Source: a virus. From it: DNA of 64,000 nt. Numbering within the stretch: position 1 is the first letter of the stretch; the number at the start of each line of letters is the position of its first letter. The stretch covers positions 1-64,000 of the IMG/VR virus record IMGVR_UViG_3300046786_000748. One strand, given 5' to 3'. Below the pieces are notes generated by a model. It had not been told where the DNA came from, did not search any database, and saw only the letters and a list, made by a program, of their open reading frames with translations. Positions 26,826 through 59,721 of this stretch are shown piece after piece. The translations under genes and the position numbers were made by a program.

Positions 26826-28103
26826 ATGATAAAGTTTGCGGATTTGTTATTGGAAAAATTTGAATTGCCATCTGCTTTACAAAAACAGTTGGAAAATACT
26901 GGTTATTCAGCTCTTGGTCATATCCTCCCTCCACATTTTGAAAAACTTAAGAAAAAACTATTACAAAACCGTGATTTAAATCAAAAAAGTTATTCTGGTA
27001 TAAAAAATGTAATGGGATATATAAAAAAACTTACAGAAGGTGGCGGAAACACCAAACTTACATTAACCGATCTACTCGTTCCAGAATATTATTCAACTAA
27101 TGATACCAAAGAATCTCTTAAAAAGGGAACCGTAACTATAGAAAAGGAGGGAAACCAAATATACGTGGAGTGTAAAGATAAAAAAGAAACCCTGTTTTCA
27201 TTTGTTATTAGCAAAGATTATGCCGGTTGGGATTTGGGACAATTAAACCAATTTTGGAATAAAATAGACGATTCTTACAAAGACTTTGAAAAAGAGTTTG
27301 ACGAAAAACTAGTATCAATGGAATCCATTTCTAAAAAAGTAAACGGTTGGAAATCAATGGATAAAGCCAAAAAACCCAAGTTTAAAGAACCAAACTTAGT
27401 TTTGGTTTTTGAAAAAACTGTATCCGAAACAGGTCAACCTTACGAACATTATTTTAGAGCATTTAACTTTAAAAAAGACGACGAGAGCAAACATCCAGAT
27501 TACTTTTCCTCAACAACCCCACCAAGAATAGTTCAAACAATTATTCTAGAACACTATGATATACTAAAATTCCCCAATTATTTCGATAGAGCAGTTTCTA
27601 TATTTATCGGTACTTCAAGACATGAAGGAAGACATTTGTTACAACATGTGGGTAATATTAATAACAAACTTCGTGGAGATTATTACGGAGGCCCTAAAAA
27701 ATCATTAAAACATCAATATAACCCAGACCTTAGAGGGTCTGATTTTAGTGGTACTGCTAGTCCAACAACAAAGTTTAAAGATACCGAAGACCCTTACAAA
27801 CGAGTTATACATCCATTTAGAGACGTTGAATTCAAAACTAATCTTTACAATTATAAAGAAGAAATTGAAGATTTTTTGAAAAATAACGTTCCTAAAAACA
27901 AATGGAGAGAAGGTTTTAATGATGCTGTACGACATGCGGCTGGTAGTATGGATTATAATTCATTTCGTAAAAAATATCCATTTTCATCGGTGTTTTCATA
28001 TTCTACAGTAATATCCAAACATTTCAAAGAGTTATTTAAACACGACAGACCAAAGTTTAATCAGTTTGTTAAAGAACTTTACAAACTCATTTTTGGAGGG
28101 TAA
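26826..28103 (+). CDS. HExxH (zincin-like) protein with candidate capsid-targeting leader
   Basis: SRHEGRHLLQ motif with a downstream Glu (FRDVEFK); N-terminus MIKFADLLLE. Confidence 0.6.
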   Translation: MIKFADLLLEKFELPSALQKQLENTGYSALGHILPPHFEKLKKKLLQNRDLNQKSYSGIKNVMGYIKKLTEGGGNTKLTLTDLLVPEYYSTNDTKESLKKGTVTIEKEGNQIYVECKDKKETLFSFVISKDYAGWDLGQLNQFWNKIDDSYKDFEKEFDEKLVSMESISKKVNGWKSMDKAKKPKFKEPNLVLVFEKTVSETGQPYEHYFRAFNFKKDDESKHPDYFSSTTPPRIVQTIILEHYDILKFPNYFDRAVSIFIGTSRHEGRHLLQHVGNINNKLRGDYYGGPKKSLKHQYNPDLRGSDFSGTASPTTKFKDTEDPYKRVIHPFRDVEFKTNLYNYKEEIEDFLKNNVPKNKWREGFNDAVRHAAGSMDYNSFRKKYPFSSVFSYSTVISKHFKELFKHDRPKFNQFVKELYKLIFGG

Positions 28104-28106
28104 AAT

Positions 28107-28400
28107 ATGAATTTGATTATAAGTGGAGAATTGACTATACCAAAAAGCGAAATTGGTGCATTTAGAACTTTGACGTTATATGCTACAGTTTTTAAAAAAT
28201 TAGATTGTCTTGTCGAATGTCAAGAAAACGAAATCGATCTTTATTATAAATGGTTAAAAAGAAACTGGTCATATGATTTTGTAAAACAAATGGTAAAAAC
28301 AAATGAAGAAACAGGAATACACATCAAATATAGTAAGTTAGTTAACTCTATAACATTCAACAACTTAAACCAATATATAGCAATTTTAAAAAGAGTATAA
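28107..28400 (+). CDS. Hypothetical protein
   Basis: 97-aa ORF tightly packed in the operon (3-nt and 0-nt gaps). Confidence 0.6.
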   Translation: MNLIISGELTIPKSEIGAFRTLTLYATVFKKLDCLVECQENEIDLYYKWLKRNWSYDFVKQMVKTNEETGIHIKYSKLVNSITFNNLNQYIAILKRV

Positions 28401-28907
28401 ATGAGTGAAAATGTAAAATATGAATATGGATGCGTAATGGCAATAGTTGGTGATGACGCTTCTAAAAAAATCATTGACATTGGAAAAAAACTTATTGCTG
28501 ATGACATTTTATATTTTGAAGAGGGTCAAGAGTATGGGAGAGAAGTTGAACCGCATGTGACTATAAAATTTGGTTTGACGGATAACTATAGTAAGGATAC
28601 AATAGGAAAGTTGCTTTCTAAAATAGATCCATTTAAAATAACGTTAGTCGCCATTGATATCTTTTCAAATCCAAAATTTGATGTTGTCAAGTTTAATGTT
28701 GAGGGCGACGTTTTAAGAAAGTTGAATTCGGTGTTTAACAAATTGCCGAACGAAGATGAATATCCAACGTATAACCCTCATATGACATTGGCTTATGTAA
28801 AGACAGGAGAGGGAAAACGGTTTAAGAAAAAAATAAACCCAATACAACTTTCAGTGGATAAAATGAAGTATAGCAATCCAATTGGGAAGTATTATTACAA
28901 TTTATGA
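28401..28907 (+). CDS. 2H phosphoesterase (LigT/ThpR-like or Acb1-like cyclic phosphodiesterase)
   Basis: Two HxT motifs: EPHVTIKFG and YNPHMTLAY. Confidence 0.85.
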   Translation: MSENVKYEYGCVMAIVGDDASKKIIDIGKKLIADDILYFEEGQEYGREVEPHVTIKFGLTDNYSKDTIGKLLSKIDPFKITLVAIDIFSNPKFDVVKFNVEGDVLRKLNSVFNKLPNEDEYPTYNPHMTLAYVKTGEGKRFKKKINPIQLSVDKMKYSNPIGKYYYNL

Positions 28908-30331
28908 TGTTAAAACAGATATTGACTGAAGGTGCGAAAGAACTTGCGGTTGAAGACTTTCTGAAAAATCTCATTCGGGGAACTGAATGGGAAAATAAAG
29001 TTTTTATAGCAGGTGGATATGTCCGTGATTATGTTATGGGCAAAGATCCAAAAGACCTTGATTTAATGGTTGATAAACCCAATGGAGGCATTGAATTTGC
29101 TAACTGGGTTACTCAAAGAATTGGAAATCACAAGGAAGGTTCCAATCCTGTTGTGTTTCCACGATTTGGAACCGCAAAGTTTAATCTTAATGGAATCACT
29201 CATAATGGTATGGATTTAGGTGGGATGGATATTGAAGCTGTCATGCCTAGAGCAGAAACTTATACCGCAGGTTCTCGTAAACCAGAAGTTGGGTTTTCTT
29301 CTTTACAAGGAGATGCCGAACGAAGAGATTTGACTGTTAATGCTTTATTTAAAAATCTATCTACTGGAGAAATTCTGGATTTAACTGGAAAAGGATTTGA
29401 CGACCTTAAAAAAGGCATTGTCAGAACTCCTCTGGAACCATCTAAAACTTTTACAGACGACCCTTTGAGAATGTTAAGGGTAGTTAGATTCTATGCCAAA
29501 TACAAATGGGATATTCCACTCCATATTGTAAAAGCTTTGAAAGCAAATTCACATCAGTTGAAAAATATTTCTGCTGAACGAATTCAAGACGAATTGAATA
29601 AAATGTTGATGACCGCGAATCCTGATAAAGCAGTTAAATTGTTGAAAGTCACCAACTTGATTCAATATGTTGTTCCTGAACTGAAACAAGCGGTTAAAAT
29701 GACTCAGAATCACCATCACAGTATGGATGTTTTTGGTCATACTATTGATGTATTGCGTAAAACCAAACCTGTTCTTGTTCAACGGTTAATGGGGTTGTTT
29801 CACGATATTGGCAAAATATCTACTAGATCCGTCACTCCATCAGGAGTTCATTTCTATGGACATGAACATGTTGGTGCGGAAATGGCTGAACAAATAATGA
29901 AACGTTTGAAGTATCCAAACGAAGTCATTGAAGCAGTCAAAAAGGGTATTGCTAACCATATGCGTCTTAAGCAAGGGGGTGATACCGCTGTTAATTTAAC
30001 CGACAAAGCATTGCGTAAATTTGTAATGGATGTTGGCGACCAATTAGAAAATGTGTTGGATTTAATTCATGCAGATAATATTGCTCATTCAGAAACATCA
30101 TCAATGCCTAATCAGATCGATTTTGTAAAAACAAGATTAAAAAGCATTGAAACTACAACTTCAAAACCAAAATTGCCTATTACAGGTTTTGATTTACAAA
30201 AAGAACTTGATTTAAAACCAGGTCCTATTTTCAGTGAAATCATGAAAGCAATAACTGAAGCTTGGTTGGAAAATCCAAAGTTAGATAAAAAAGAATCTTT
30301 AAATATAGCTAGAAAAATAGCTAAAGTATAA
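28904..30331 (+). CDS. cca: Class II CCA-adding tRNA nucleotidyltransferase with HD domain
   Basis: GGYVRD, DLDL, RRDLTVNAL, DDPLRMLR, SAERIQDE motifs, LFHDIGK HD motif, C-terminal LKPGP..IM. Confidence 0.9.
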   Translation: MMLKQILTEGAKELAVEDFLKNLIRGTEWENKVFIAGGYVRDYVMGKDPKDLDLMVDKPNGGIEFANWVTQRIGNHKEGSNPVVFPRFGTAKFNLNGITHNGMDLGGMDIEAVMPRAETYTAGSRKPEVGFSSLQGDAERRDLTVNALFKNLSTGEILDLTGKGFDDLKKGIVRTPLEPSKTFTDDPLRMLRVVRFYAKYKWDIPLHIVKALKANSHQLKNISAERIQDELNKMLMTANPDKAVKLLKVTNLIQYVVPELKQAVKMTQNHHHSMDVFGHTIDVLRKTKPVLVQRLMGLFHDIGKISTRSVTPSGVHFYGHEHVGAEMAEQIMKRLKYPNEVIEAVKKGIANHMRLKQGGDTAVNLTDKALRKFVMDVGDQLENVLDLIHADNIAHSETSSMPNQIDFVKTRLKSIETTTSKPKLPITGFDLQKELDLKPGPIFSEIMKAITEAWLENPKLDKKESLNIARKIAKV

Positions 30332-45306: not shown

Positions 45307-46185
45307 TTAAACTCTTGGTGTAAAATTAACAGGGTCATAAATAGCTGTCATTTCTTTAATAAACGGTTTCATTACTTCATCTTTTAATGCTTCCTGAAAA
45401 CAGTCTTCCCAAGATTTTACTTTTGGATTTCCAATCTCGTTTAATTCAGGATTGTTATGAATTTCCCTAGCTTTTGAAGCCCATTTGGAAGCAGCCTGTG
45501 TTCTCCACTTGTCTTTATCACCACTCTTTTTGTTTCTAAAAGTCAATTCAAAAGATAATTGTTTACCATTCTCAAATATAGCAGAAATTGATTGACTTCC
45601 TTCATGTACAAACCACCCATCTCCCTGTCTAAAACTTTCATTAATTGGTGCTGTTTCCTGAGTTTCCCTAGACATCCCCTTCCAATCAGAATGGTCTACA
45701 CCCCAGTTTTTAACATAAGGTTTCATTCTTTCACTACTTAATGCTTCGACAAAACATTCTTTCCAAGATTTTCTTTTGAAATAAGGATCATTTGGATCTG
45801 TTGGACGAATTCTTGAGTTGTGTAGTCTATGAATCTTTTGAGTTTCAATCATCCACCTTCTAACCGCCTTTTTACCCCACTCTTGTATCTTTCTAAACTC
45901 CGGTCTGTAAGGACCAATAGAATTACCAACCAATTCTCCAAGTTCTTGTGGATATTGAACTTCAAACCAAATTCTTGCTTGTTCTCGGTGATATCCCTCA
46001 GGACCTATGTAAACACAAGCACCTGTAGTTCCACTTTCCCAATCATTTGCTCCTTGATAAGCAGACCAACCATTCCCCTGTTCAAACATATCAAAATTTT
46101 CAGGAACACGAAATGGTTTGGCGTCTTTAGACGACACAAACCCAGGAACATAGAGTTCTTCTAAAAGGTGTTTTAAGTGAATCAT
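45307..46185 (-). CDS. Hypothetical protein with two tandem homologous domains, candidate internal head protein
   Basis: MIHLKHLLEE leader; G.GW...G ... SW(K/E).CF.EAL....MKP(Y/F).K occurs twice; ends IYDPVNFTPRV. Confidence 0.7.
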   Translation of the reverse strand: MIHLKHLLEELYVPGFVSSKDAKPFRVPENFDMFEQGNGWSAYQGANDWESGTTGACVYIGPEGYHREQARIWFEVQYPQELGELVGNSIGPYRPEFRKIQEWGKKAVRRWMIETQKIHRLHNSRIRPTDPNDPYFKRKSWKECFVEALSSERMKPYVKNWGVDHSDWKGMSRETQETAPINESFRQGDGWFVHEGSQSISAIFENGKQLSFELTFRNKKSGDKDKWRTQAASKWASKAREIHNNPELNEIGNPKVKSWEDCFQEALKDEVMKPFIKEMTAIYDPVNFTPRV

Positions 46186-46186
46186 A

Positions 46187-46990
46187 TCAAATTATAAATA
46201 TCGGATTCTTATTACAAAACTCGTCTAATGCTTTGAATAATTCAACATTATTAGCCCACTCCTTAAGTGGTTTCTGTTCATCTTCCGGATTTTCATCCGA
46301 AACAACAGGTTCTTCTTCTGGCTCTTGTGGAGTTTGCATCGGATCATCAACAGGTTTTGTAGCTACTGTAGGTTCTAGTTCTGGCTCAGGAGTTTGAGTT
46401 GGATCAATCGGTTTTTCCAATTCTGGCTCAGGTTCTTCTGGTGGTAATTTTTCCTTGGGAGGAGTTGTTGGAACAGCCACAGGAGTTTGATTGGGTGGTT
46501 GTGTTGGGTCGGGAGAAGGAACAGGTTCGCCTTCAATATTAGTTCTTAAATACTCTTTTAAAGCAATAAGATGTTTACAAAGACCAGGACCACGGTTAAT
46601 AGAAGATGGATAGTTCAATCCTTTGTTCAAACTACCAGGACCGTTTTCACCTGCGTCTTGTTGTTTATTAGCATAACTAAATCTAAACCTATAATCAGGA
46701 CAACTGCAATCAACTGAACAAGGAACTTTCATTGCGTTATCGCCAGGATTCATTTCTTCTTTGTAAAAATAAATAAACCCTTGGTGTCTCAATCCCGTAG
46801 TATTTTCGTCTCTAGGAGTTTTATAAGAAAATTTCCAAGCCTCTCTGTCGTTTATAGATTTAGCTACAAGAGATTTTGCTGGGATTCTATTCGCTCTGTC
46901 TTTTCTAGCAGAATCAGAAGCACGCATGAGATCTTCATAAGACATTTTCTCAACAAGCATTTCTGAAATTAATGAACGAAGTTTAATCAT
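46187..46990 (-). CDS. SWIM-type zinc-finger protein with Pro/Glu-rich tail
   Basis: VDCSCPDY...GLCKHL (CxC...CxH); MIKLRSLISE leader. Confidence 0.7.
   Translation of the reverse strand: MIKLRSLISEMLVEKMSYEDLMRASDSARKDRANRIPAKSLVAKSINDREAWKFSYKTPRDENTTGLRHQGFIYFYKEEMNPGDNAMKVPCSVDCSCPDYRFRFSYANKQQDAGENGPGSLNKGLNYPSSINRGPGLCKHLIALKEYLRTNIEGEPVPSPDPTQPPNQTPVAVPTTPPKEKLPPEEPEPELEKPIDPTQTPEPELEPTVATKPVDDPMQTPQEPEEEPVVSDENPEDEQKPLKEWANNVELFKALDEFCNKNPIFII
46193..46200 (-). promoter_or_regulatory. TATTTATA late-promoter-like motif
   Basis: Embedded in the last codons of the SWIM gene, 7 nt before ATG 46185. Confidence 0.55.
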
Positions 46991-46991: not shown

Positions 46992-47549
46992 TTAGTTGAA
47001 TCCCAATCTCATAACCATCGTTGTTAAAATTGGACATTGAAATTTGTTTTTATCATAATACATCCATTCAATAGTACCTTCACTATCAAACTTAGAACCA
47101 TCTCCTGTTTTTTTAGAAGGTTCTTTATCACCAACATCAACTGCGTATAAATAATAAATAGTATCTGTTGATTTAGTACCTCTACAAGTTCCCAATGATT
47201 TCAAATCTTTCTCTTTTACTTCATATCCACTTTCTTCTTTAATTTCTTTTACAGCAGTTTCTTCAGGAGACATGCCTTTTTCACAACCACCTGTCAAAGC
47301 AGATAAGTTCTTTTCTTTCCCCCAAGCAGGAGTAACTTCTTTTCTAACCCCATATTCCCACGCATCCCTACCTTTTCTTCTATACAATAAAACCCCTACT
47401 ATTTTACCCTGACAACGTTCTTCGTGGAGATAAAAATAACCATCTTCGTCTTTAACAAGTTTAATTTTTTTAATGGAAATCCACTCGTTTTCATAAACGG
47501 TTTCTTCTTTTTTATTTCCTTCACAGAGAAGATGTTTTAACTTAATCAT
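46992..47549 (-). CDS. Nudix hydrolase
   Basis: Slightly degenerate Nudix box GGCEKGMSPEETAVKEIKEESGY; MIKLKHLLCE leader. Confidence 0.8.
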   Translation of the reverse strand: MIKLKHLLCEGNKKEETVYENEWISIKKIKLVKDEDGYFYLHEERCQGKIVGVLLYRRKGRDAWEYGVRKEVTPAWGKEKNLSALTGGCEKGMSPEETAVKEIKEESGYEVKEKDLKSLGTCRGTKSTDTIYYLYAVDVGDKEPSKKTGDGSKFDSEGTIEWMYYDKNKFQCPILTTMVMRLGFN

Positions 47550-48487: not shown

Positions 48488-50215
48488 TTATACTTGATTT
48501 AAATCGCCTACCAAAATGCGCCCGTAAAATTCTGGGCGGACTATCTTCTTCGCATATCTTGTCATTACACCACGTCTTGGCGTGAAGTTCACTGGATCGT
48601 AGACTAGAGGAGTCTGAACGAGTGGGATATATGGAGCATAGACAGCACCAGTTTCGAGGAAGTTATTTCCACGGAAACCAACAAGAATTACGTTGTCGGT
48701 CATATATGGGTTCTTGTAAACCTGGAATCTTGAAGCAAAGCTTCCGACTCTGGTTACGCCCATTGCGAACTTGGCTTGGTCACCATCGGTATTTACTGCC
48801 CATCCTGGGATGGATTCAAGGATGGTTGCGACATCTGGCGAGCAAACGAGGAAGTTAGCACCACCACGGAGGGTCAACTGGTGAATCTTGTTACTAACCT
48901 TCTGAATCTTGATACCCAACGTGCGGTACCATGTATCCTTGGTGTAATATCCACCTGTTCCTGCAACGGATTGATCAACGACTGCGTATGTTCCATCACC
49001 GTTGGAGAGGATTTCACGATTGAGCTTAGCAGACCATCTTTCGGTGGTGATTGCTGGAGCATTCGTGATTAACATGTCGAGGATTTCAAGGTCGATTTCC
49101 ATTGAAACGTACTCAGACAACAGAGCAGTAAGTTCTGCTTCTGCGTCAATGCTGTGATAAGCATTCAAGTCTTGAGCAAGTTCTGGAGTCCAGACTGCTT
49201 TCAACTTACGAGTCTTGGCGACGATAGGTTCGCTCTTAAGTTCCAAATTAACTTCTGGGATACCGATATCGTTATTTAATCCAAATGTAGCATCTGGAGA
49301 ACCACGATCTTCGAAGTCACCACGGTTGGCATCTTTAGGCTGTACTGAGTAAATAACAGTCCAAGTTCCACCAGCGGCATTTGCACCACCACCACCCATA
49401 CCTGGAGCACCACCCAATGTTGCGGAAGCAGTTACGAGGAAGACAACTTCGGTTCCGAATTGTTTGGTTAATGCTGGGTAATACGATGCGGATGTATTAG
49501 TTGGAGTAAACAACGATGCGGATTGTGCTGGTCCATAAAGAACAAAGCTACGAACTCCATTTGCGTCGAATACGTTACCAGCTGCTGTGGTCTGTGAATA
49601 GAGGTTAGTTGTAGCAACCTTCCAAATCTTACCAGCGGCCAGTGAAGATGACAAACTTACATCCCAGTTGATATCTTCCATCGAAGCAGAAGAAACTAAG
49701 ACTGTAGCGGTTGTGTTTTTATCATTTACAGTATATCCGAAACGGCCGGAACCATAAAGACCACCGGTTGCTGAATCAGTCGAACCGAGTTTCGTACCCG
49801 TTCCACCGTAAAGAGATTGCGAGGTTGTTCCACCACCCTGACCGTCCTTGTAGAACTGACCTTGGTTTGTTCCATACTTGAAATCAAGATAGAATACGAG
49901 ACCAGAAGGAAGATTCATTGGCTGAACCGAGACGAATTCCTTAGCAGCGATTTCTGCGAATACACGACGAACGAGTGGAAGAGCGACGCCTGCCCATTGT
50001 TCGGAGTTTGAAGATACACCAGTCTGACTGGCTTCTTCGATAAGCTGCTTGGCTTGGTTTTCAAGCAATACAGCCATGTTGGATTTTTCCATGTCATTCT
50101 TCAAACCTTCAAGCAAGCCTGTCTTATCCCACTTGGAGACGAGACCACGGGTTTCTTGCATCAAACGAGCCTGAGGATTCATGGTGTTTGTCAATAGTGA
50201 CTTTACATCATTCAT
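48488..50215 (-). CDS. gp23: Major capsid protein (T4 gp23-like)
   Basis: LPLVRRVF, VSVQPMNLPSGLVFYLDF, AKTRKLKAVWTPELAQDLNAYHSIDAEAELT, YAPYIPL, DPVNFTPRRGVMTRY. Confidence 0.95.
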   Translation of the reverse strand: MNDVKSLLTNTMNPQARLMQETRGLVSKWDKTGLLEGLKNDMEKSNMAVLLENQAKQLIEEASQTGVSSNSEQWAGVALPLVRRVFAEIAAKEFVSVQPMNLPSGLVFYLDFKYGTNQGQFYKDGQGGGTTSQSLYGGTGTKLGSTDSATGGLYGSGRFGYTVNDKNTTATVLVSSASMEDINWDVSLSSSLAAGKIWKVATTNLYSQTTAAGNVFDANGVRSFVLYGPAQSASLFTPTNTSASYYPALTKQFGTEVVFLVTASATLGGAPGMGGGGANAAGGTWTVIYSVQPKDANRGDFEDRGSPDATFGLNNDIGIPEVNLELKSEPIVAKTRKLKAVWTPELAQDLNAYHSIDAEAELTALLSEYVSMEIDLEILDMLITNAPAITTERWSAKLNREILSNGDGTYAVVDQSVAGTGGYYTKDTWYRTLGIKIQKVSNKIHQLTLRGGANFLVCSPDVATILESIPGWAVNTDGDQAKFAMGVTRVGSFASRFQVYKNPYMTDNVILVGFRGNNFLETGAVYAPYIPLVQTPLVYDPVNFTPRRGVMTRYAKKIVRPEFYGRILVGDLNQV

Positions 50216-50255: not shown

Positions 50256-51545
50256 TTACTTTTTCGCAGGAATACCAGCGAGCTTCTGGAATCTCTGTGC
50301 CATCTGATTAACACCTTCGGTGATAACCTCTTTAGATGGTTTCGTTGACGCTACAGGCTTGGATGCTGCACCCTCGGTGATCGTAGTAACTTGATTGATT
50401 GGGTTCTGCGAGAGAGCCTTTCTCTTCAAGTTTCCACCAAGATTTAATGATTCACACCAATTTGCGTATGTCATCTTAACTTCACGAACGCATTTTGTAA
50501 GATCAAATGCTTCCACGACCTTTGTTTTTTGGTCACGGTTCATACCAAACTCCTTAAACAGCTTGTTCGTGTAAAGCAGTTTTGCGTTTAGTAGATTGAT
50601 CTCATTAAGTTGTTTCTGTAAATACTCTACAGTCTTGTAGGCTTCATTACGTTCAGAAGTTACTTCATTAAGTTGAGTTTGAAGAGCAACGGTTTCATCA
50701 CACTTCTCTTCCTTATCGTCTTCTTCCTTCTCTTCTTCCTTCTCTTCTTTAGCCTCTTCATTGAGACTTGCGAGTAATTCATTCAAATCAATTTCTTCCT
50801 CTTCCATAGGAGCTGGTTCCTCAGTTGGAGGAGCACCGGCGTCTGGTCCACCCATTGGAGGAACTTCGCCGCCTGGAGGAGGAGGCGTTCCACCAACAGG
50901 AGCTTCAACCTTAGAAATTACAACAGTGTCACCACTCTTGATTTCTTGAGATTCTTCGCCTGGGGTTTCTTCGCCTGGAACTTCATCGTCACCTGGAACT
51001 GGAGGTCCGCCGGCGTCACCACCTGGAACTGGAGGCATGTCATCCATAGGAGCAGCACCAGCTTCGGCTTCAAGCTCACGAATAATTTCATCCAAATCTT
51101 CGTTTGTTACAGTTTCTTCAACTGATTCCTCTTCAACAGCACCTTCTGTTGCGTTTTCTTTAACTCCTTTGGGAGTTCCGTCAAATGCGTTACCTTTGTT
51201 ATCCTTAGACCAACCTTTGGTTCCATCTCCACCGTCTTTAGCAGAAGGAATTGTGTTTGGGGTGATGTTTTTATCGGTAGGTTTTGGACCTGCGTTGTCT
51301 TTAGACCAACTCTTAGTGCCATCGTTCTTAGATGGTTTTGCATCCTTTGGTTCTACAGTTTCAGCAACAGGGGCATCGACTGATGGTTGGGATTCGGTTG
51401 CAGAATCTTCTCTCAATTTATCTGCAAATACAGCCGAAAAACGACTGTTAAAAGCTTCCTCAAGGGATGCTTTAGCATTTGCTAATGCTGTGGCTCTAAC
51501 GGCCTTTGCATCGGCAATAGCTTCTTTTAATAGATTACTATTCAT
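50256..51545 (-). CDS. Prohead scaffolding / core protein (T4 gp22-like position)
   Basis: Acidic, Pro/Gly-rich, coiled-coil LNEINLLNAKLLY, C-terminal RFQKLAGI; many (L/I/V)xE sites; directly upstream of the capsid gene. Confidence 0.8.
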   Translation of the reverse strand: MNSNLLKEAIADAKAVRATALANAKASLEEAFNSRFSAVFADKLREDSATESQPSVDAPVAETVEPKDAKPSKNDGTKSWSKDNAGPKPTDKNITPNTIPSAKDGGDGTKGWSKDNKGNAFDGTPKGVKENATEGAVEEESVEETVTNEDLDEIIRELEAEAGAAPMDDMPPVPGGDAGGPPVPGDDEVPGEETPGEESQEIKSGDTVVISKVEAPVGGTPPPPGGEVPPMGGPDAGAPPTEEPAPMEEEEIDLNELLASLNEEAKEEKEEEKEEDDKEEKCDETVALQTQLNEVTSERNEAYKTVEYLQKQLNEINLLNAKLLYTNKLFKEFGMNRDQKTKVVEAFDLTKCVREVKMTYANWCESLNLGGNLKRKALSQNPINQVTTITEGAASKPVASTKPSKEVITEGVNQMAQRFQKLAGIPAKK

Positions 51546-51721: not shown

Positions 51722-52429
51722 ATGCCCGCCAAAAGTGAAAAACAACGTAGATTTTTCTACTTGGTAAAAGCCCTTCAAAAAGGAAAGGTTTCACCAAAAA
51801 GAGTTGGTAGTAAAGTTTCCAAAGCAGCATCATCTATGTCATCTAAAGATGTTGATGATTTTACTCATGGAAAAAACCTACCTAAGAAAAAACTAGAAGA
51901 AATTATAGGAGTGTTAAAAAACTTATCGGCTAACGATGAAAATCCAGCCTTTCAAGATCCTGTAACCGATTTAAGAACAGGAGTTGCGAATCCAGATTTA
52001 ACTTTGGAAAACCAATTTGATGATCCAAATCAAACCGAACAAAACCCTATAGCTAAAACTTTTAATCAACAAGGTAACTTTGAAGAATATATTGGAAAGT
52101 TTTCTGGACTAGAACTAAAACCGAAAGAAATAGAATCCATTACTAATTATACTAATGCTAAGCCTACTAAGATGGATAAATTCTTAGTTAGATATGAATC
52201 AACAGACGAGTTTAATAACAACACTATAACCGTAGTTAAAAAATTAAGAGAAGGCACAGATTTAGTATTTACTATTTTTCAATCATCTACACAACAAGGT
52301 GGAACGGAACCTCAAGGTGAAGAACCAACAGGACAAAACGAAATTATAGTAACTAAATCTCGTTCGTTTGTTAATGAAATTGAAGGTGGTAAAATTTTAG
52401 CAGACTTATTACAGAAATTGGACGTATGA
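51722..52429 (+). CDS. Hypothetical protein with basic DUF3008-like N-terminus
   Basis: MPAKSEKQRRFF...SMSSKDVDDF....LPKK; start moved to ATG 51722. Confidence 0.6.
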   Translation: MPAKSEKQRRFFYLVKALQKGKVSPKRVGSKVSKAASSMSSKDVDDFTHGKNLPKKKLEEIIGVLKNLSANDENPAFQDPVTDLRTGVANPDLTLENQFDDPNQTEQNPIAKTFNQQGNFEEYIGKFSGLELKPKEIESITNYTNAKPTKMDKFLVRYESTDEFNNNTITVVKKLREGTDLVFTIFQSSTQQGGTEPQGEEPTGQNEIIVTKSRSFVNEIEGGKILADLLQKLDV

Positions 52430-52794
52430 TAAAATTAAAACAACTACTAAAAGAAGTTGACGAGGATAAAAACTCAAACATTGCTTCTGTTGAAGATGAA
52501 CGGGAATGGAAAATGCCCGATGTCGATCATATGCTTTCTATGAAATTTGAAAGAGAAGGAGATTCGGTTTTTATTCTAGCAAATCCAGCGATGAAGGTTT
52601 ATAAGATAAAAAACGGACCTTTTGTTTTGGAAGAACCTATAGAAAATCACGAACACAATTTTCAAAAAGGAATTGTTTCACCTATAAAACCACACGGATT
52701 AGCAGCATTTAACCAAAGTAAACAAATCAAAAAGTATGAGTTTCCAACATTTATCAAACTCATAAGATTTTTCGATAACTATAAACAAGATTAA
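52426..52794 (+). CDS. Hypothetical protein, candidate internal head protein
   Basis: MIKLKQLLKE leader; ATGA-coupled to the previous gene. Confidence 0.65.
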   Translation: MIKLKQLLKEVDEDKNSNIASVEDEREWKMPDVDHMLSMKFEREGDSVFILANPAMKVYKIKNGPFVLEEPIENHEHNFQKGIVSPIKPHGLAAFNQSKQIKKYEFPTFIKLIRFFDNYKQD

Positions 52795-52807
52795 GGATTT
52801 TGAACAA

Positions 52808-52815
52808 TATTTATA
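52808..52815 (+). promoter_or_regulatory. TATTTATA late-promoter-like motif
   Basis: 5 nt before ATG 52821. Confidence 0.6.
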
Positions 52816-52820: not shown

Positions 52821-53807
52821 ATGAAACTCAAAAAGATTGTAGAAAACATGGACAAAATGCCTTCGACATTGAAGGGATTTAATGAGTCGCCAAAACTTTC
52901 TCCTGAACAAAAGAGAAAATTAATGGAAATGGTAGGTCAATATAACACCCTCGGACAGAAATTAAGAATGGAAGGTGCTTTGATTGAAACTGCCACAGCT
53001 TTAGCTGAAATAGCCGAACTAGCAGAAACCTATGCTTGTAATGAAGCATCCGATTGGTTCGCAACTGAAGTGGTTAAAACCGATTTTAAACGAGCTAAGG
53101 GAATTACAGAAACATTTCAAAAACTCGCCCGTGAATGTCATGGTAAAGTTCAACAGTTGAATGCTCTTTATGAAGACATGGGACACATTCTTGGGCGTTA
53201 TTATGAAATCGCCGACCCAATGGCCGAAGTCTGTCCAAATCCAACAAATGTTAAGAGTCAACGTGGTTTGCCAAATGCACAACCTCAGACAATCATGCAG
53301 GAAGTTAAACCTAATGATAAAAATATCAAATCTCAAAGACAACTCCCATCCGGCGGTTCTGCTCCAACGCAAGTAAAAGAAGTTGCTGTTGACGATAAAC
53401 ACGCAAACATCAAAGGACAACGTGAACTTCCTCACACCAACGGCCCAGCAACGCCTCAAGTAAAAGAAGTTGCTGTTGATGACAAACACGCTAATGTTAA
53501 AGGTCAACGAGATTTGCCTTCTGGCGGACCTACTCCTTATCATCCACCAAAAGATCCACAAGATACCGGTTCAGTTAAAGAAGTAACTGTAAATGATTCC
53601 AATCTTCAATCTCAACGTGAACTTCCACAAGGCGGTCCAGAAGGATATACACCACCCAAGTTAGAAAATCCAAGCCCAGAAGTAAATCCTGCTGGTGCTG
53701 GTGAAATGAATGTTAAAGGTGAAAGAGATGTTCCACAAGGAGGACCATCTAAAGATGTCGCTTATGAGTCTTTTAGATTCAAAGACATTCTAAAATCAAT
53801 TAAGTAA
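52821..53807 (+). CDS. Hypothetical protein with helical N-domain and six degenerate C-terminal repeats, candidate internal head protein
   Basis: MKLKKIVE leader (start moved from TTG 52800 to ATG 52821); repeats EV...N(I/V)K(S/G)QR.LP.GG. Confidence 0.7.
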   Translation: MKLKKIVENMDKMPSTLKGFNESPKLSPEQKRKLMEMVGQYNTLGQKLRMEGALIETATALAEIAELAETYACNEASDWFATEVVKTDFKRAKGITETFQKLARECHGKVQQLNALYEDMGHILGRYYEIADPMAEVCPNPTNVKSQRGLPNAQPQTIMQEVKPNDKNIKSQRQLPSGGSAPTQVKEVAVDDKHANIKGQRELPHTNGPATPQVKEVAVDDKHANVKGQRDLPSGGPTPYHPPKDPQDTGSVKEVTVNDSNLQSQRELPQGGPEGYTPPKLENPSPEVNPAGAGEMNVKGERDVPQGGPSKDVAYESFRFKDILKSIK

Positions 53808-53831: not shown

Positions 53832-53860
53832 AAGACCGTCAGAAATGACGGTCTTTTTAT
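53832..53860 (+). terminator. Rho-independent terminator between convergent genes
   Basis: aagaccgtca-GAAA-tgacggtctt hairpin followed by T-tract. Confidence 0.85.
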
Positions 53861-54258: not shown

Positions 54259-54259
54259 A

Positions 54260-54999: not shown

Positions 55000-55696
55000 T
55001 AACAAAGATTACATCACAATCATCACATCCGTCAACATAATCTATCTGTTTTGCCTTTTCTACAAAACCAAATTGATTAAGATAATCACAAACGTCTTTA
55101 TAAGATGGTTGGTTTTTATATTTAGGTTTCCAACTACATTCTGCTTGAATGACAGATACATTTTTAATCATATCTTCAAACCCTTTAAAAACTTCTATTT
55201 CAAATCCTTGAACATCTATATAAACCAAATCTACTTTTTTTATGTTATTATTTAAACAATAAGTTTTCGCTTTAGCAATAGGAACGGCTTCTGCAAGAAG
55301 TTTTTTGTCAAATAACTCTAAATCAGAACATTCTTCTAAAAAAGAATTTAACCCAGGATTTCTAAACAAATTTAAAATCGCCGATCCATCTGAATTTCCC
55401 AATCCACATAAAACTGATGTTATATTAGGAATACCGGAAACATTATCAAGAATCAATTTGAATGGTACCAGTGATGCTTCAAATAAAAAAACATGAGATT
55501 TCGGAAGGTAGTTGCTCAACAAAATAGCTTCTACGCCATTTAAAGCGCCAATATTAAAAACAACATCCATTTTAATCGGATCAACAAATGTCATCAAAAA
55601 ATCTATCTGTTTTTTGATATTGTCAATTATAAGACCAAATTCACCGTTAAGATTATCATTATAATAAAGTAAATGATTAACTAAATGGTCTTTCAT
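54986..55696 (-). CDS. FkbM-family methyltransferase
   Basis: VFNIGALNG, FEAS, VDLVYIDVQGFEIEVFKG motifs; start placed at ATG 55696. Confidence 0.85.
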   Translation of the reverse strand: MKDHLVNHLLYYNDNLNGEFGLIIDNIKKQIDFLMTFVDPIKMDVVFNIGALNGVEAILLSNYLPKSHVFLFEASLVPFKLILDNVSGIPNITSVLCGLGNSDGSAILNLFRNPGLNSFLEECSDLELFDKKLLAEAVPIAKAKTYCLNNNIKKVDLVYIDVQGFEIEVFKGFEDMIKNVSVIQAECSWKPKYKNQPSYKDVCDYLNQFGFVEKAKQIDYVDGCDDCDVIFVNERI

Positions 55697-55697
55697 T

Positions 55698-56213
55698 TTA
55701 TTTTTTCCAAAATTTTCTGACAACCATTAAAATTTCTCCGAGTTTATTCTGTCCTTTTCCTTCATAAACTCCCCAACAAACATCTTTCCAATGATTCGTT
55801 TCTTCAAGATAAGCATTATCTGTCGATAAAAGTTTTTCTCTTAACCCCTTGTGAACAGCAAATTTTTGAGTAACCAGTTGAAGCATAACATCATATTTAA
55901 CATTATCCCACTCCTTTTTATCCAATAACACACTGCCACCAAGTCTTTTAACTTCTTTAGCATTACACGTTGTAAAAGGTAAACGATCATGCGAATCAAC
56001 CTTCGCAGCTTGATAAGCATGTTCCGTGGAGGGATACTTCAATCCTTCATACCAAATTCCCAATGGACATGGATAAAAGTTGCTCAAATAACGATAATCT
56101 CCAAAAAACCCTTTGATTTCTTTTTCGGAATGAACCGCGTATTCCGGAACTTTTACTTCCGAAACATATTGTTTCTTATCAAGAGCTTTTTTGAGCAATT
56201 CAATTTCTGTCAT
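55698..56213 (-). CDS. NADAR family protein (YbiA-like)
   Basis: YLSNFYP, YPSTEHAYQAAK, KFAVH..LREKLLST....LEE....D.CWG....GQNKLGEILM.VR; start placed at ATG 56213. Confidence 0.9.
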   Translation of the reverse strand: MTEIELLKKALDKKQYVSEVKVPEYAVHSEKEIKGFFGDYRYLSNFYPCPLGIWYEGLKYPSTEHAYQAAKVDSHDRLPFTTCNAKEVKRLGGSVLLDKKEWDNVKYDVMLQLVTQKFAVHKGLREKLLSTDNAYLEETNHWKDVCWGVYEGKGQNKLGEILMVVRKFWKK

Positions 56214-56442
56214 TTTTTGACCTTTCTTCTTTACATTCTTCATCTGCTTTTTTGATTGCATCAACCAATTCCTGCCCATCTCCCTTTTTGATTATTTGAA
56301 GCGGCGTTAATCCTTTATAATCTTTCAAAGGAGTATTCAACCATTCTCGGACAACCGCATCTAAAAAGACAGATTTAACCTTTTTTATCATAAGGTTAAT
56401 CTGCTCGGATTGAGAGAGTTCGTCTTTTTGTTTTTTATCCAT
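56200..56442 (-). CDS. MbcA/ParS/Xre antitoxin C-terminal domain (DUF2384-like) protein
   Basis: VF....VREWLNTPL..YKGLTPLQII..G..QELVD.I matches the W-L-x-x-P...G-x-x-P-L pattern of this domain. Confidence 0.65.
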   Translation of the reverse strand: MDKKQKDELSQSEQINLMIKKVKSVFLDAVVREWLNTPLKDYKGLTPLQIIKKGDGQELVDAIKKADEECKEERSKNDRN

Positions 56443-56443
56443 A

Positions 56444-56665
56444 TCAATCGCTCATATCAGCGTGATGAACATATTTACACTCATCACAAATTGTTACTAC
56501 ATCCGTACATCTATTCATATACTGCGAATTATCAAATTCCCGAGTTTTGTGTTTTGCTTCCATACACTCTTTGACTTTTGGATGATTCCATAATTGCCAT
56601 CCCAAATCAGTGTAATCAACGGGTTTAACAAAACGACCTGCGTTTGGATTTCTTATTAAGACCAT
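56444..56665 (-). CDS. Small Cys/His-containing hypothetical protein (possible Zn ribbon)
   Basis: C...H and CDEC; directly behind a sigma70-type promoter. Confidence 0.6.
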   Translation of the reverse strand: MVLIRNPNAGRFVKPVDYTDLGWQLWNHPKVKECMEAKHKTREFDNSQYMNRCTDVVTICDECKYVHHADMSD

Positions 56666-56671
56666 GATAAG

Positions 56672-56700
56672 ATAATAAACGAAAAAAGAGAGAATGTCAA
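56672..56700 (-). promoter_or_regulatory. sigma70-type early promoter TTGACA-17-TATTAT, probably leaderless
   Basis: -35 at 56695-56700, -10 at 56672-56677; ATG 56665 begins 6 nt after the -10 box. Confidence 0.7.
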
Positions 56701-56713
56701 TTCTCTCTTTTTT
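56682..56713 (-). terminator. Hairpin terminator overlapping the -35 box
   Basis: aaaaaagagagaa(t)-gtca-(a)ttctctctttttt perfect inverted repeat immediately after the nucleotidyltransferase stop. Confidence 0.7.
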
Positions 56714-56715
56714 GT

Positions 56716-57834
56716 TTAACGAAGACGTTTGATGTCGTGATATAAACCGTTGATTTTTTTAAAGTCAACTGTTTTTGGAAGTTTGGTGACTTTGTATGCT
56801 TCGTCCAATTTAACTTGCATTTCTTCGGCATACTCCATCACCTTATCATAACTCCAAGCACCCTTCTTGATTGATAAGATTTCGTCTCGATCTGGCCTTT
56901 TAACGATTACTTTGCCTTCCGTTAAGATTTCATAACCCATTCTCATCAACCTAACAAGGTGTGAAGCGTGTTTCGTGTCATATCCTGATTTCTCTTCAAG
57001 AACAGCACGTTCTTTGTTACGATTCTTCTTCCAGTTAACCCAAGACTGATATTTCTCAACCGATCTTTTATAAGCGTATTCAGCTTGAATCAACTTAGCA
57101 ACCTGTTCTGACAAACCAAGGTCATGAACAAGTTTTTGTTGAGCAGATAACCAATAGGCTTCCGGCCAATTATCCCAAGAAACAGATGCTCCAGAAACTT
57201 CTATGATTAACTCCCAGATAGTTTCTTTCAAATCATTTCTCGTCATTTCATCCAAAGGAAACTTGCTAAGGTTCCATTCTTCAAGCTTCTGCTTGACATA
57301 CTTGTTAACCTCGTCAAATCCCCTCGGTGAAGTATCAGGAAGACCAAAATCGGCCCGAGAAGGCTCTTTTAATTCTCCTTCGACAATCCATTTTCGGTGT
57401 CTTTCGATTTTAGCTGCCTGAGCAAAGGCATATCCACTAAACGTGAACTTTGCTTTTGAACTCAAGAATAAATCTCTGTGTTCAAATAAAGAAGATATGC
57501 TCTTATGATACATCAACCTATCGCTTTCATGAGTCCACAATAACTCGATGATGTTTGGGTTAATGTTTGCTGCCAAGATAAAAAACTTTCTCAAAGAATA
57601 AACCGTAGACTCCAGTTTTGGGTTCTTGGGGTTCTTGAGATAAGCACATTGAACTTCAACATCAGGATGATTTTCCGCCTGTTCAAAGTGTTGAAACAAG
57701 TCGTTTTCCACTTCGTCCGGAGGAATACAAATCCCTTTAACGTCAACGTCAGAGGATTCCGTAGCAAGACCATACGCTCGACTTCCGTGGACCGTTAAAT
57801 ATACGAGATTGTCTTTTAACCAGTTAAGATTCAT
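56716..57834 (-). CDS. Pol-beta superfamily nucleotidyltransferase (PF10127 / RlaP-like)
   Basis: HGSRAYGLATESSDVDVKGI (GS-x10-DxD), NPNIIELLW, YDTKHASHLVRL motifs; start moved to ATG 57834. Confidence 0.85.
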   Translation of the reverse strand: MNLNWLKDNLVYLTVHGSRAYGLATESSDVDVKGICIPPDEVENDLFQHFEQAENHPDVEVQCAYLKNPKNPKLESTVYSLRKFFILAANINPNIIELLWTHESDRLMYHKSISSLFEHRDLFLSSKAKFTFSGYAFAQAAKIERHRKWIVEGELKEPSRADFGLPDTSPRGFDEVNKYVKQKLEEWNLSKFPLDEMTRNDLKETIWELIIEVSGASVSWDNWPEAYWLSAQQKLVHDLGLSEQVAKLIQAEYAYKRSVEKYQSWVNWKKNRNKERAVLEEKSGYDTKHASHLVRLMRMGYEILTEGKVIVKRPDRDEILSIKKGAWSYDKVMEYAEEMQVKLDEAYKVTKLPKTVDFKKINGLYHDIKRLR

Positions 57835-57841
57835 AATAACT

Positions 57842-57870
57842 ACTTTACAGTATAAAAACAGAAGAGTCAA
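57842..57870 (-). promoter_or_regulatory. sigma70-type promoter TTGACT-17-TAAAGT, near-leaderless
   Basis: -35 at 57865-57870, -10 at 57842-57847, 7 nt before ATG 57834. Confidence 0.55.
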
Positions 57871-57924: not shown

Positions 57925-58542
57925 TTAAACGATTTCACTGAAAATGTCTTGAATGATACTTTCTGCTGTAACCCATTTTCCGTTAATTGGGTTTTGTACA
58001 ACTTGTTTTACACCTTCTGTTAAAGCACCAGATGGAAACATAAATGCTCCTCTTGTTGAAGGATTGGAAACAAAATCAAAAGCAATCAATTCAAAATCGT
58101 CTTGAACCTGATCAACACCTTCGGAAATTTTCTTAATAGTTCCAAGACCACGACTGGAAATTCCAAGACGAATGTTGGAACGGAAAAGTTCTTTCAAGAT
58201 GTTACCGCTTGGAGTTCCAAGAACTTCAACGGTTCCCATAAGATCTTTACCTTCCCAATGCATTTCAATTATGTTATGGGAAACGTTTTTGAGGTTAACT
58301 ACTTGAGATTCTGGATGATCAAGTTCACCAAGAGCACGTCTTTCTTTTATAAAACCCTCTGTATATTTTTGGGCCTCACGCATTAGAGTTTCATATGGAT
58401 AACTACGTCCATTTTGGTTTGTGGCTTCTGCACGCTGGAGAATGCCCTTTACAACGAATGGACCTTTACCGGATAAGGCTTCGGTAAGAGTTTGTCTCAA
58501 AGGTTCAAACGTTATTACGTCAATTAAGAGTTTCTTTTCCAT
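57925..58542 (-). CDS. gp21: Prohead core protein protease (T4 gp21-like)
   Basis: NQNGRSYP, RALGELDHP, VSHNI, TPSGNI, LGISSRGLG, DFVSNPS motifs. Confidence 0.95.
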   Translation of the reverse strand: MEKKLLIDVITFEPLRQTLTEALSGKGPFVVKGILQRAEATNQNGRSYPYETLMREAQKYTEGFIKERRALGELDHPESQVVNLKNVSHNIIEMHWEGKDLMGTVEVLGTPSGNILKELFRSNIRLGISSRGLGTIKKISEGVDQVQDDFELIAFDFVSNPSTRGAFMFPSGALTEGVKQVVQNPINGKWVTAESIIQDIFSEIV

Positions 58543-58543
58543 A

Positions 58544-59014
58544 TTATCTTCCTAAAGCTGGTTGTTTACCTGCTCCAGTAGGTTGTTGACCTTGAGGGTT
58601 TACAGGCGGTTGTGAAGGTTGTTGAACCGTTGGTTCCGGTTGTTGTGGAGTTTCTGCTGCTCCTGGTTCTGGAGCAATACCACCACCAACAACTTTAATT
58701 TTGTAACCGGCTGTTAAAAAATGTTCTTTGTTATTTTCGTTTTTCAATACAACAACCCAATCATCATAAAAGTCGTTTATATTGACGCCGGTAACTCTAC
58801 TAATTGTATAATCTTTGACAGGTTGTTTGTATCCTCTTGAGGCATTGACAACCACAGATTTGTTTAAAATTTTAGAAGCAAGAGCTTTTTCAAACTTTGA
58901 CTTAGCTTGTTCAGTTGTAGAGTTTATCGTGGATTTAAACGCATCAAAATCTCTGGTCCAGTCATAAAACTGTCCCTGATCAACCTGTTCAAGAATGTGG
59001 GATAAAAGCATCAT
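58544..59014 (-). CDS. Hypothetical protein, candidate internal head protein
   Basis: MMLLSHILE leader; Pro/Gln-rich tail; in the portal-protease operon. Confidence 0.65.
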   Translation of the reverse strand: MMLLSHILEQVDQGQFYDWTRDFDAFKSTINSTTEQAKSKFEKALASKILNKSVVVNASRGYKQPVKDYTISRVTGVNINDFYDDWVVVLKNENNKEHFLTAGYKIKVVGGGIAPEPGAAETPQQPEPTVQQPSQPPVNPQGQQPTGAGKQPALGR

Positions 59015-59721
59015 TAGGTTACCTTTCCACCAACACTTTTGGCAGCAATAGATTTCATTTTTTTCCTATCAGGATCAGGATCTACCCAATTTTTACCGTA
59101 AAATCCTTGAGCAGCAGATGTTCCTGTCATCTCGTCTATATCACCCTTCCACTTCTTATCACGGTTTCTATCATACTTTGGTTTAGGACCTTCTTTTCCC
59201 TGACCGTGTATTCTCGAAACGGGATTTACATCACCCCAAGATTTTCTAACTTTTGGTGTAGAAGGAGCTTTTATTGTAATACTTCCTTCTTTGATATTAT
59301 GCATTTTTTTAAAAGTTTCGTAAGAATAAGTTACATCACCAGCAGTTGAATAAACAGCAACATCAATCTTTCCATTTGGATACCTGGCATTCACAAATTC
59401 ATATTTAGTCCCACCCATTATAAAAGGCTCTTCGCCTGTACGTCTACTATGGTATTCAACATATTGCGGATCTTCTTCGACTTCATCCAATCCTCCTAAT
59501 CCCATTTTATTAAGTTGATCGGTTCCAGCTTTTAAATCATCCATCTGTTTGTTATAATCAACTTTTGGTGGTTTTCCTGGTTTTGAACTTGGAGTAGGTG
59601 TTGTAAACCCATCGGGTTTATCACCCCAATTGCCATGTTTATCTAACTGTTGGACACCATTTTCAATTAGGACTTCTTTAATACATTCCCTAATGAGTTT
59701 TTTAAATTCTTTCTTATCCAT
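59014..59721 (-). CDS. Hypothetical protein, candidate prohead core / internal protein
   Basis: MDKKEFKKLIRECIKEVLIE leader and internal LDE, IKE, IDE sites. Confidence 0.65.
   Translation of the reverse strand: MDKKEFKKLIRECIKEVLIENGVQQLDKHGNWGDKPDGFTTPTPSSKPGKPPKVDYNKQMDDLKAGTDQLNKMGLGGLDEVEEDPQYVEYHSRRTGEEPFIMGGTKYEFVNARYPNGKIDVAVYSTAGDVTYSYETFKKMHNIKEGSITIKAPSTPKVRKSWGDVNPVSRIHGQGKEGPKPKYDRNRDKKWKGDIDEMTGTSAAQGFYGKNWVDPDPDRKKMKSIAAKSVGGKVT

Follow-up and report, generated by a model that had tools for sequence, protein, structure and literature searches.

A short N-terminal leader shared by unrelated proteins of a Far-T4 phage is probably a capsid-targeting propeptide

The viral record IMGVR_UViG_3300046786_000748 of IMG/VR is a linear contig of 104,993 bp with an estimated completeness of ~30%, and its first 64 kb (positions 1 to 64,000) form the stretch of DNA analysed here, which we refer to as the window. 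Nine otherwise unrelated proteins of this contig, eight of them encoded inside the window, open with a common leader of 8-10 residues, and the nature of this leader is the subject of the present study. The contig encodes a T4-type portal (Portal_T4), an S77 protease and a major capsid protein (MCP) of the Gp23 family, all identified by Pfam, which is the set expected of a Far-T4 phage. The MCP is 54% identical to that of Flavobacterium phage vB_FspM_immuto (hereafter immuto), 52% to that of Microcystis phage Mel-JY01, and 39% to that of Rhodothermus phage RM378. On these identities, the phage was assigned to the Far-T4 group of T4-like phages (PMC4360716). Close relatives of this MCP are encoded in at least 600 IMG/VR contigs. 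Three sets of relatives were compared: 80 related MCP (head) loci; five genomes of 250-369 kb; and 47 leader-bearing IMG/VR contigs, mostly fragments that are 5-40% complete. Numbers with the prefix L denote sequences of relatives. The leader-bearing (tagged) genes of the window are as follows.

26826..28103, plus strand: 425-aa protein with an invariant H-E-G-R-H motif, a putative zincin; leader residues 1-10 at 26826-26855
28904..30331, plus strand: CCA-adding-type tRNA nucleotidyltransferase with an HD domain; 9-residue leader variant at 28904-28930, ending L-T-E
45307..46185, minus strand: 292-aa protein with an internal duplication; leader residues 1-10 at 46156-46185
46187..46990, minus strand: 267-aa SWIM-like (C-x-C...C-x-H) protein; leader residues 1-10 at 46961-46990
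46992..47549, minus strand: 185-aa Nudix hydrolase; canonical leader residues 1-10 at 47520-47549
52426..52794, plus strand: 122-aa protein; canonical leader at 52426-52455
52821..53807, plus strand: 328-aa protein; 8-residue leader ending I-V-E
58544..59014, minus strand: 156-aa protein whose gene comes directly ahead of that for the protease, where T4 has gp68; 9-residue leader ending I-L-E at 58988-59014

The leader follows the consensus M-I-K-L-K-x-L-L-x-E, in which positions 6 and 9 are free and Glu10 is fixed, and each of the nine tagged proteins closes it with [L/I]-x-E, the Glu being residue 8, 9 or 10. An initial annotation of this DNA, made from the sequence alone, had proposed that otherwise unrelated proteins share such a leader, and all ten N-termini that it listed were recovered in place. 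The proposal was confirmed for the short leader. A regular expression for the short leader gave 7 matches in the six-frame translation of all 104,993 bp, and all 7 were starts of long open reading frames (ORFs); one of them lies outside the window, at the start of a 598-aa protein (100590). An [L/I]-x-E ending at residue 8-10 was found in 12 of 85 proteins, where 2.5 were expected (binomial p ~9e-6), and the stricter form [hydrophobic][L/I]-x-E in 8 proteins, where 0.8 were expected (p ~1e-6). Past their first 22 residues, the tagged proteins gave no mutual BLASTP match below E = 0.19. The codons for Leu, Ile and Lys in the leader vary from gene to gene (Leu being encoded by TTA, TTG, CTT, CTA and CTC), unlike the leaders of T4 ipII and ipIII, which are identical in DNA. 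Because synonymous codons differ between the copies, selection acts on the peptide.

The leader is also widespread among the relatives. In the 80 head loci, a relaxed regular expression matched 61 of 1205 ORF starts versus 6 of 6836 internal methionines. The 61 tagged proteins fall into ~26 unrelated clusters, are mostly encoded no more than 9 kb downstream of the capsid gene, and make up a set that is hypervariable between close relatives. The five large relatives each contain 5-15 exact matches to a degenerate DNA pattern for the leader, compared with 0-1 for the reversed pattern, and many of these matches are arranged in tandem, translationally coupled arrays. A scan of IMG/VR with the strict consensus yielded at least 140 matches in at least 120 contigs; among the 140 matches listed, 132 stand at the start of an ORF of 60 aa or more, and 123 fall on the first ATG. 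The scan of genome and relatives that the initial annotation had called for thus found the motif to be specific to N-termini and present across the clade, and a chance origin of the leader was rejected on the six-frame, 80-locus and N-terminal enrichment counts. When cultured phages were searched for two widespread tagged families, no member of one was found, and the other was represented by Mel-JY01 and an uncultured record only. The complete genome of immuto carries related leaders, one of them on an NT5C nucleotidase. Two further shared N-termini were seen in immuto (L002-L005; for example at 1803, 103762, 117587 and 118588): M-E-N-F-D-L-K-K-F-L-V-E-N-K-L opens four ORFs, and a third type (M-K-K-Q-I-L-S-E-Q-F...) opens two. 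Full-text searches of the literature returned no description of this leader, or of any signal resembling a T4 capsid-targeting sequence (CTS), in Far-T4 phages.

Several tagged proteins of the window have tagged homologues in relatives. The homologue of the 45307-46185 product (L029:13710-14705) likewise bears the leader, and the SWIM-like protein belongs to a nine-member cluster of tagged proteins. In the family of the HExxH protein (26826-28103), both Glu10 and the HEGRH motif are invariant (23 sequences). Homologues of the 58544-59014 product occupy the same position in 18 loci, with leaders ending [L/I]-x-E. The 52821 protein consists of the leader, a helical domain rich in [L/I]-x-E and then ~six repeated units; the family of its N-terminal domain, with an L-Y-E-D-M-G-H motif, is widespread, and the leader is present in L136 and L167. 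The related units in its C-terminal half (53229-53768) follow M-A-E, M-Q-E, V-K-E (three times) and S-P-E. With this layout the protein is a candidate for the prohead core, and it may be processed into small peptides in the manner of the T4 core proteins.

The enzyme labels given to the tagged proteins by the initial annotation (HExxH, CCA enzyme, SWIM, Nudix) held up, on the invariance of HEGRH, the C-x-C...C-x-H pattern and Pfam scores above cut-off. In the CCA-type enzyme, the PolyA_pol head, RNA-binding and HD domains score 73.9, 61.7 and 40.9 bits, all above the Pfam cut-offs, and its best PDB relatives are tRNA nucleotidyltransferases (E = 4.5e-35); on these similarities it is a member of the class II CCA-adding enzyme / poly(A) polymerase family. 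The Nudix protein scores 34.8 bits against the Pfam NUDIX profile (cut-off 21.1), and its nearest solved relatives are ADP-ribose pyrophosphatases (E ~1e-3). For the AlphaFold2 model of the HExxH protein, Foldseek found no PDB match at E <= 0.001, and the protein atlas contained just unnamed viral clusters together with a weak LPD23 lead of high nominal score.

Whether the leader belongs to the folds that follow it can be read most directly from a family that exists in both states.

28401..28907, plus strand: 2H (LigT/Acb1-like) phosphoesterase without leader (Pfam 2_5_RNA_ligase2, 37.5 bits)

This gene lies in one unit with the HExxH and CCA genes and is a natural leaderless comparator. Within the 2H family, 28401-28907 and L091 lack the leader and L092, L093 and L095 bear it; in the alignment it forms an N-terminal extension of 7-10 residues ahead of a common core. 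In the AlphaFold2 model of the HExxH protein, the mean predicted local distance difference test (pLDDT) score is 84.5, and residues 1-11 score <50. As the 2H family occurs in both states and these first residues of the HExxH protein appear unstructured, the leader has been added to the N-terminus in one enzyme family at least, judging from these comparisons. In the 598-aa protein, the PHROG match begins at residue 33. The comparison with cellular homologues suggested by the initial annotation gave a split outcome: alignment of the Nudix protein with cellular ADP-ribose pyrophosphatases shows an offset of +9 residues, so that its leader is an extension, whereas the CCA enzyme was uninformative, since its cellular homologues also have ~30 residues before the conserved head domain (Pfam PolyA_pol starts at residue 33 and the PDB alignments at residue 27-30).

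The genes of the head module provide a protease and a predicted cleavage rule with which the leader can be compared (arrows mark the position of the cut).

48488..50215, minus strand: MCP, gp23 family (Pfam Gp23, 4e-77)
50256..51545, minus strand: acidic, proline-rich, coiled-coil scaffold candidate in the gp22 position; its N-terminus ends L-L-K-E↓A
57925..58542, minus strand: prohead maturation protease, S77, homologue of T4 gp21 (Pfam PF03420, 5.4e-26; PHROG, 1e-50)
60679..63741, minus strand: portal, gp20 family, with an intein and HNH endonuclease (Pfam Portal_T4 5.5e-69, Intein_splicing, HNH_3); it marks the head module

The portal intein also holds a NUMOD3 motif, and the portal domain starts only at residue 444. 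The gp21 homologue reported in the initial annotation was confirmed: it scores 91.7 bits against PF03420 (cut-off 27), is 32% identical to T4 gp21, and retains the catalytic His (E-L-D-H-P) and Ser (G-I-S-S-R-G) motifs, which align with the residues mutated in the gp21 construct of PDB 5jbl. Its predicted self-cleavage site is T-L-T-E↓A at residues 18-21, and an [L/I]-x-E near residue 21 is kept in 17 relatives. The predicted maturation site of the MCP, Q-L-I-E-E↓A at residues 57-61 (50033-50047), matches the place of the T4 gp23 site L-T-E↓A. In the relatives this site reads Q-L-[I/L]-x-E, where x is E, D, N or S, and the Glu is invariant in 78 of 78 sequences. The MCP site thus has a signature with a hydrophobic residue at P3 and Glu at P1, predicted to follow the same cleavage rule as the leader, and the last four residues of the leader (L-[L/I]-x-E) equal this predicted capsid maturation site. 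Relatives of the scaffold candidate open with M-S-[D/N]-L-L-K-E-A, comparable to T4 gp22, and the scaffold, the protease and the protein in the gp68 position all have N-terminal [L/I]-x-E sites that are conserved in relatives. The T4 gp24 propeptide, M-A-K-I-N-E-L-L-R-E↓S, has M1, K3, L7, L8 and E10 in common with the leader consensus; no gp24 paralogue was found in the 105-kb contig. S77 was detected in 26 of the 47 leader-bearing IMG/VR contigs versus 0 of 14 control genomes, and in all five large relatives. When the protease (17-row alignment) was modelled in complex with Nudix residues 1-40, the score was 0.00; this prediction was run without controls and counts neither way.

Portal, fibre and baseplate genes are preceded at a distance of 12-36 nt by the motif TATTTAT[A/T], and so are the tagged genes or the units that contain them. 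Among the tagged starts, those at 26826, 46185, 47549, 52821 and 100590 are preceded by it.

26806..26813, plus strand: sense-strand TATTTATA motif, ~13 nt before the start at 26826
46193-46200, 47558-47565, 52808-52815, 60636-60643 and 63761-63768: further copies of TATTTATA, which precede virion or tagged genes

The copy for the 46185 start is 7 nt upstream, and 52821 is an internal ATG of an ORF that opens at 52800, with a TATTTATA motif between both. The 8-mer TATTTATA occurs 22 times, where 6.7 occurrences were expected. In the relatives, 26 of 61 tagged genes have TATTTAT[A/T] in the 60 nt before their start, versus 234 of 1144 others, and the motif heads the arrays. The initial annotation had placed all leader genes in operons headed by such motifs. 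This was borne out for the five starts above and for the remaining tagged genes that follow in same-strand runs, but not for the 52426 gene, for which a unit head bearing TATTTAT[A/T] was looked for and none was found. Its observation that enzymes driven by sigma-70 promoters lack the leader proved accurate: the block at 53857-57870 has sigma-70-like promoters and no leader on any gene. This block lies between the protease and scaffold genes, with terminator-like hairpins on both sides. The tagged genes share the upstream TATTTAT[A/T] with virion genes and may be expressed late, together with the head genes. The block itself (minus strand) is an island encoding a DenV-like pyrimidine-dimer glycosylase, a dCMP deaminase, an FkbM methyltransferase, a NADAR protein and an RlaP-type nucleotidyltransferase. 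As further observations on the motif, TATTTATA, read on the sense strand before virion genes, corresponds to the T4 late promoter TATAAATA in reverse complement, and since the start codon often follows at a distance of just 7-20 nt, the leaders of the mRNAs would be very short.

The proteins behind the leader are of many kinds. In this contig they comprise the HExxH protein, the CCA-type nucleotidyltransferase, the Nudix hydrolase, the SWIM-like protein and five proteins without assigned function. In the relatives they include five ART-PolyVal-like members (E down to 1e-5, under the Pfam cut-off), GNAT acetyltransferases, 2H/Acb1-like phosphoesterases (47 and 34.5 bits, above cut-off), a lysozyme (41.9 bits), a 5'-deoxyribonucleotidase and other HAD-like proteins (motif by eye and PHROG match), and a D-G-H-H-R protein of the ParB-nuclease kind (by eye only). 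These cargo types would fit known virion-delivered effectors. The unit at 26826-30331 (plus strand) encodes the HExxH protein, a 97-aa ORF, the 2H (LigT-like) phosphoesterase and the CCA enzyme, a combination reminiscent of a set for RNA/tRNA 3'-end repair. The CCA gene of relative G001 is directly followed by the beginning of a leader array. The last 11 residues of the 45307-46185 product (45307-45354) nearly copy the C-terminal MCP peptide Y-D-P-V-N-F-T-P-R; this mimic was not used as evidence of capsid binding, as the tail is missing in both homologues and is hence specific to this genome.

Outside the tagged set, two genes for GIY-YIG homing endonucleases were found, at 47566-48333 (minus strand) and 31302-32177 (plus strand), one of which is directly downstream of the capsid gene, the location that segD has in T4, where it separates genes 23 and 24. 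At 1219-19138 (minus strand), two giant ORFs (2071 and 3888 aa) presumably encode fibre or surface proteins, and a GT4 glycosyltransferase gene (21153-22193) lies near them.

In addition to the short leaders, the initial annotation had counted 20-residue "long variants" as the same signal.

59014..59721, minus strand: basic protein of 235 aa, encoded between the portal and protease genes; its long variant has 20 residues and ends L-I-E; a possible core protein
23964..24536, minus strand: 190-aa protein that opens with a long variant, encoded among the neck/head-completion genes; a doubtful member

This extension of the signal was not convincing. The three long-variant sites are 24536 in the neck module, 89939 in the baseplate module (adjoining the gp25 gene) and 59721 in the head core, and an amphipathic pattern is their sole common feature. 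An attempt to tie them to the head failed on the first two locations, so that only 59721 is plausibly head-related. Neighbours of 23964-24536 resemble the head-completion region of Mel-JY01 by N-terminal likeness, and the 59014-59721 product gave no family match in protein family searches.

The closest known counterpart of the leader is the CTS of T4. Exchange of the Glu for Asp in T4 prevents processing and leaves targeting intact. For encapsidation of IPIII its first 10 residues are enough; within the CTS, residues 4 and 7 serve targeting, and residues 8 and 10 serve processing. Alt, which is an enzyme, enters the head, is clipped there and is later ejected; CTS fusions bring foreign proteins into cells, and T-even relatives carry diverse proteins with only the CTS in common (PMC9026906; PMC3012670; PMC5694885). 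The present leader resembles the T4 system (IPI, IPII, IPIII and Alt, cut by gp21) in being a short N-terminal propeptide on unrelated proteins that ends in (L/I)-x-E, with an S77 protease in the head module, a cargo that is hypervariable between relatives, and an ADP-ribosyltransferase-like enzyme among the tagged proteins (here in relatives). An N-terminal [L/I]-x-E also recurs in both phages on the scaffold, on the protease and on the product of the gene just ahead of the protease gene (compared with T4 gp24, gp22, gp67, gp68 and gp21). It differs in sequence (M-I-K-L-K-x-L-L-x-E here, M-K-T-Y-Q-E-F-I-A-E in T4), in the larger number of tagged genes per genome (5-15 strict matches, in tandem arrays), in a cargo made up mostly of mid-sized enzymes whereas that of T4 consists of small basic proteins, and in its lineage, which is the largely uncultured Far-T4 group. 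The core-position proteins are not detectably homologous to T4 gp67 and gp68 (E = 0.26-0.73); homology of the 58544-59014 product to gp68, in particular, was considered and was not significant.

Two other systems invite comparison. Phages phiKZ, 201phi2-1 and SPN3US have ejection (E) proteins, a gp21-related protease and many head-internal proteins including enzymes; the E proteins, the virion RNA polymerase included, are packaged, cut after Glu and ejected (PMC5694885). The rule in phiKZ-type phages is S/A/G-x-E, however, the propeptides are often >100 residues long, and no short common leader has been described. Polyvalent and other virion-delivered anti-defence proteins (Iyer et al. 2017, PMC5512222; P1 Dar) share domain types with the tagged proteins of the relatives (ART-PolyVal-like and others), and these types have been proposed to reach the cell along with the phage DNA; there the domains are fused in one giant polypeptide, whereas here each is encoded by a small gene of its own and has a separate leader.

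Taken together, the sequence comparisons make it probable, well short of certain, that the leader is the T4-CTS-like capsid-targeting propeptide of this lineage, removed by the head protease. The initial annotation had read it as a T4-style capsid-targeting sequence cut by the gp21 homologue, and this core is supported by the portability of the leader, its match to the MCP site, its likeness to gp24, its add-on nature and the upstream motif; three details were corrected, namely the CCA variant, the long variants and the loose matches. Under the capsid-targeting propeptide hypothesis, tagged proteins would be made late, alongside the head proteins, and the amphipathic leader would dock the cargo on the scaffolding core of the assembling prohead. 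The S77 protease would then cut after the Glu of L-[L/I]-x-E, by the same rule with which it would remove the N-terminal domain of the MCP and dismantle the scaffold. The freed cargo would remain in the head with the DNA and be expelled into the next host cell, where the enzymes could act before phage gene expression. Core binding, cutting, retention in the head and ejection are steps that we infer, and delivery of the tagged proteins into the host would be a further step beyond the targeting itself.

Several observations weigh against the capsid-targeting propeptide or narrow its reach. Folded enzymes of 475-598 aa would need to unfold for passage through the tail, which T4 does accomplish with Alt and with fusion proteins. 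In the literature, no virion proteome was found for this phage or for its cultured relatives immuto and Mel-JY01. The leader of the CCA enzyme, which the initial annotation had listed among the others, is present as a weaker 9-residue variant; homologues retain [L]-x-E with a Gly after it, but the variant has decayed to M-E-T-K-L-N-E in L008, a homologue with 67% identity, which makes the membership of the CCA enzyme weaker. Most homologues of the 52426 protein are without Glu10, keeping M-I-K-L-x-E-I-L-H with a Glu at residue 13-15. The HPr homologue (a phosphotransferase system protein) encoded at 100243-100518 matches the loose motif with what is its native N-terminus, and loose matches can therefore be native N-termini. 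This gene (minus strand, Pfam 99.9 bits) adjoins the tagged 598-aa gene and is unusual in a phage. Since every T4-like phage has S77, its co-occurrence with the leader cannot separate a functional link from shared ancestry. In the 207-kb contig G031, which carries three leaders, S77, Gp23 and the T4 portal were searched for and none was detected; G031 is linear, has the shared promoter motif and fibre genes, and is hence probably incomplete. In G022, another apparent exception, a T4 portal lies at the extreme end of the contig.

The alternative that departs least from the capsid-targeting propeptide accepts that the leader targets the prohead and is clipped, and holds that the cargo consists of assembly, internal structural or DNA-condensing proteins and not of injected effectors. 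Two tagged genes do sit at prohead-core positions (58544-59014 by the protease, and 52821-53807 with its many internal [L/I]-x-E), T4 gp24, gp67 and gp68 have similar propeptides and are not effectors (PMC9026906), and many tagged proteins have no recognisable enzymatic domain. We nevertheless consider this account of the cargo unlikely, because Nudix, CCA, 2H/Acb1-like, GNAT, ART-like, lysozyme and nucleotidase proteins have no plausible capsid-building role, and a tagged set that is hypervariable between close relatives is expected of host-interaction genes, not of assembly parts. Somewhat less likely again is that the leader is a recognition tag for a machine other than the capsid, such as a modifying enzyme, a chaperonin, or a degradation or localisation system. 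The confounding of S77 co-occurrence by phylogeny leaves room for it; however, no other gene was seen travelling with the leader arrays, and radical-SAM genes, the candidates for a modifying enzyme, are missing from 2 of the 5 array-bearing large relatives and elsewhere lie far from the arrays. The tagged genes instead cluster beside the capsid gene, and the leader ends in the tetrapeptide rule of the predicted MCP maturation site and resembles a known T4 propeptide.

That the shared start is a DNA feature, i.e. a translation-initiation or promoter-proximal cassette or a recombination joint whose peptide is without function, we regard as very improbable. Leader starts are AT-rich and lie 7-36 nt from a promoter-like motif, and the arrays look like the product of cassette shuffling. 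Against this, the same amino acids are specified by differing codons, an invariant Glu10 contrasts with unconstrained residues 6 and 9, and operon-internal tagged genes without a promoter motif still keep the leader. A DNA-level cassette was rejected on the codon variation among copies. The capsid-targeting propeptide remains our preferred explanation.

A bolder extension of the capsid-targeting propeptide, to which we give somewhat less than an even chance, is that Far-T4 phages, which are abundant in aquatic settings and mostly uncultured, inject a large and rapidly exchangeable arsenal of enzymes by means of one ten-residue tag and so disarm the defences of the first seconds before transcription. 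That arsenal would comprise CCA and 2H enzymes for tRNA-end repair, Nudix hydrolases, Acb1-like phosphodiesterases, ADP-ribosyl- and acetyltransferases, nucleotidases and nucleases. The defences so countered would, if this tentative extension holds, be tRNA cleavage, cyclic-nucleotide signalling, and immunity based on nicotinamide adenine dinucleotide (NAD) or other nucleotides.

The mechanism proposed here is the already-known principle of T4, and the advance is one of breadth, scale and cargo type. What is new is a distinct conserved consensus, its spread in a large uncultured lineage, arrays of up to ~15 tagged genes and a cargo rich in enzymes. If the capsid-targeting propeptide is correct, the tag would reveal virion-carried proteins from sequence, which normally requires purified particles and mass spectrometry, and its ten residues would be a short, naturally occurring address with which to load foreign proteins into the heads of phages that infect Bacteroidota and cyanobacteria. 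Under the bolder extension, it would likewise allow injected anti-defence proteins to be inventoried from sequence in thousands of metagenomic phages. As the tagged set is rich in enzymes able to pre-empt very early defences (tRNA repair, degradation of signalling nucleotides, ADP-ribosylation), it could open a catalogue of pre-packaged counter-defence proteins.

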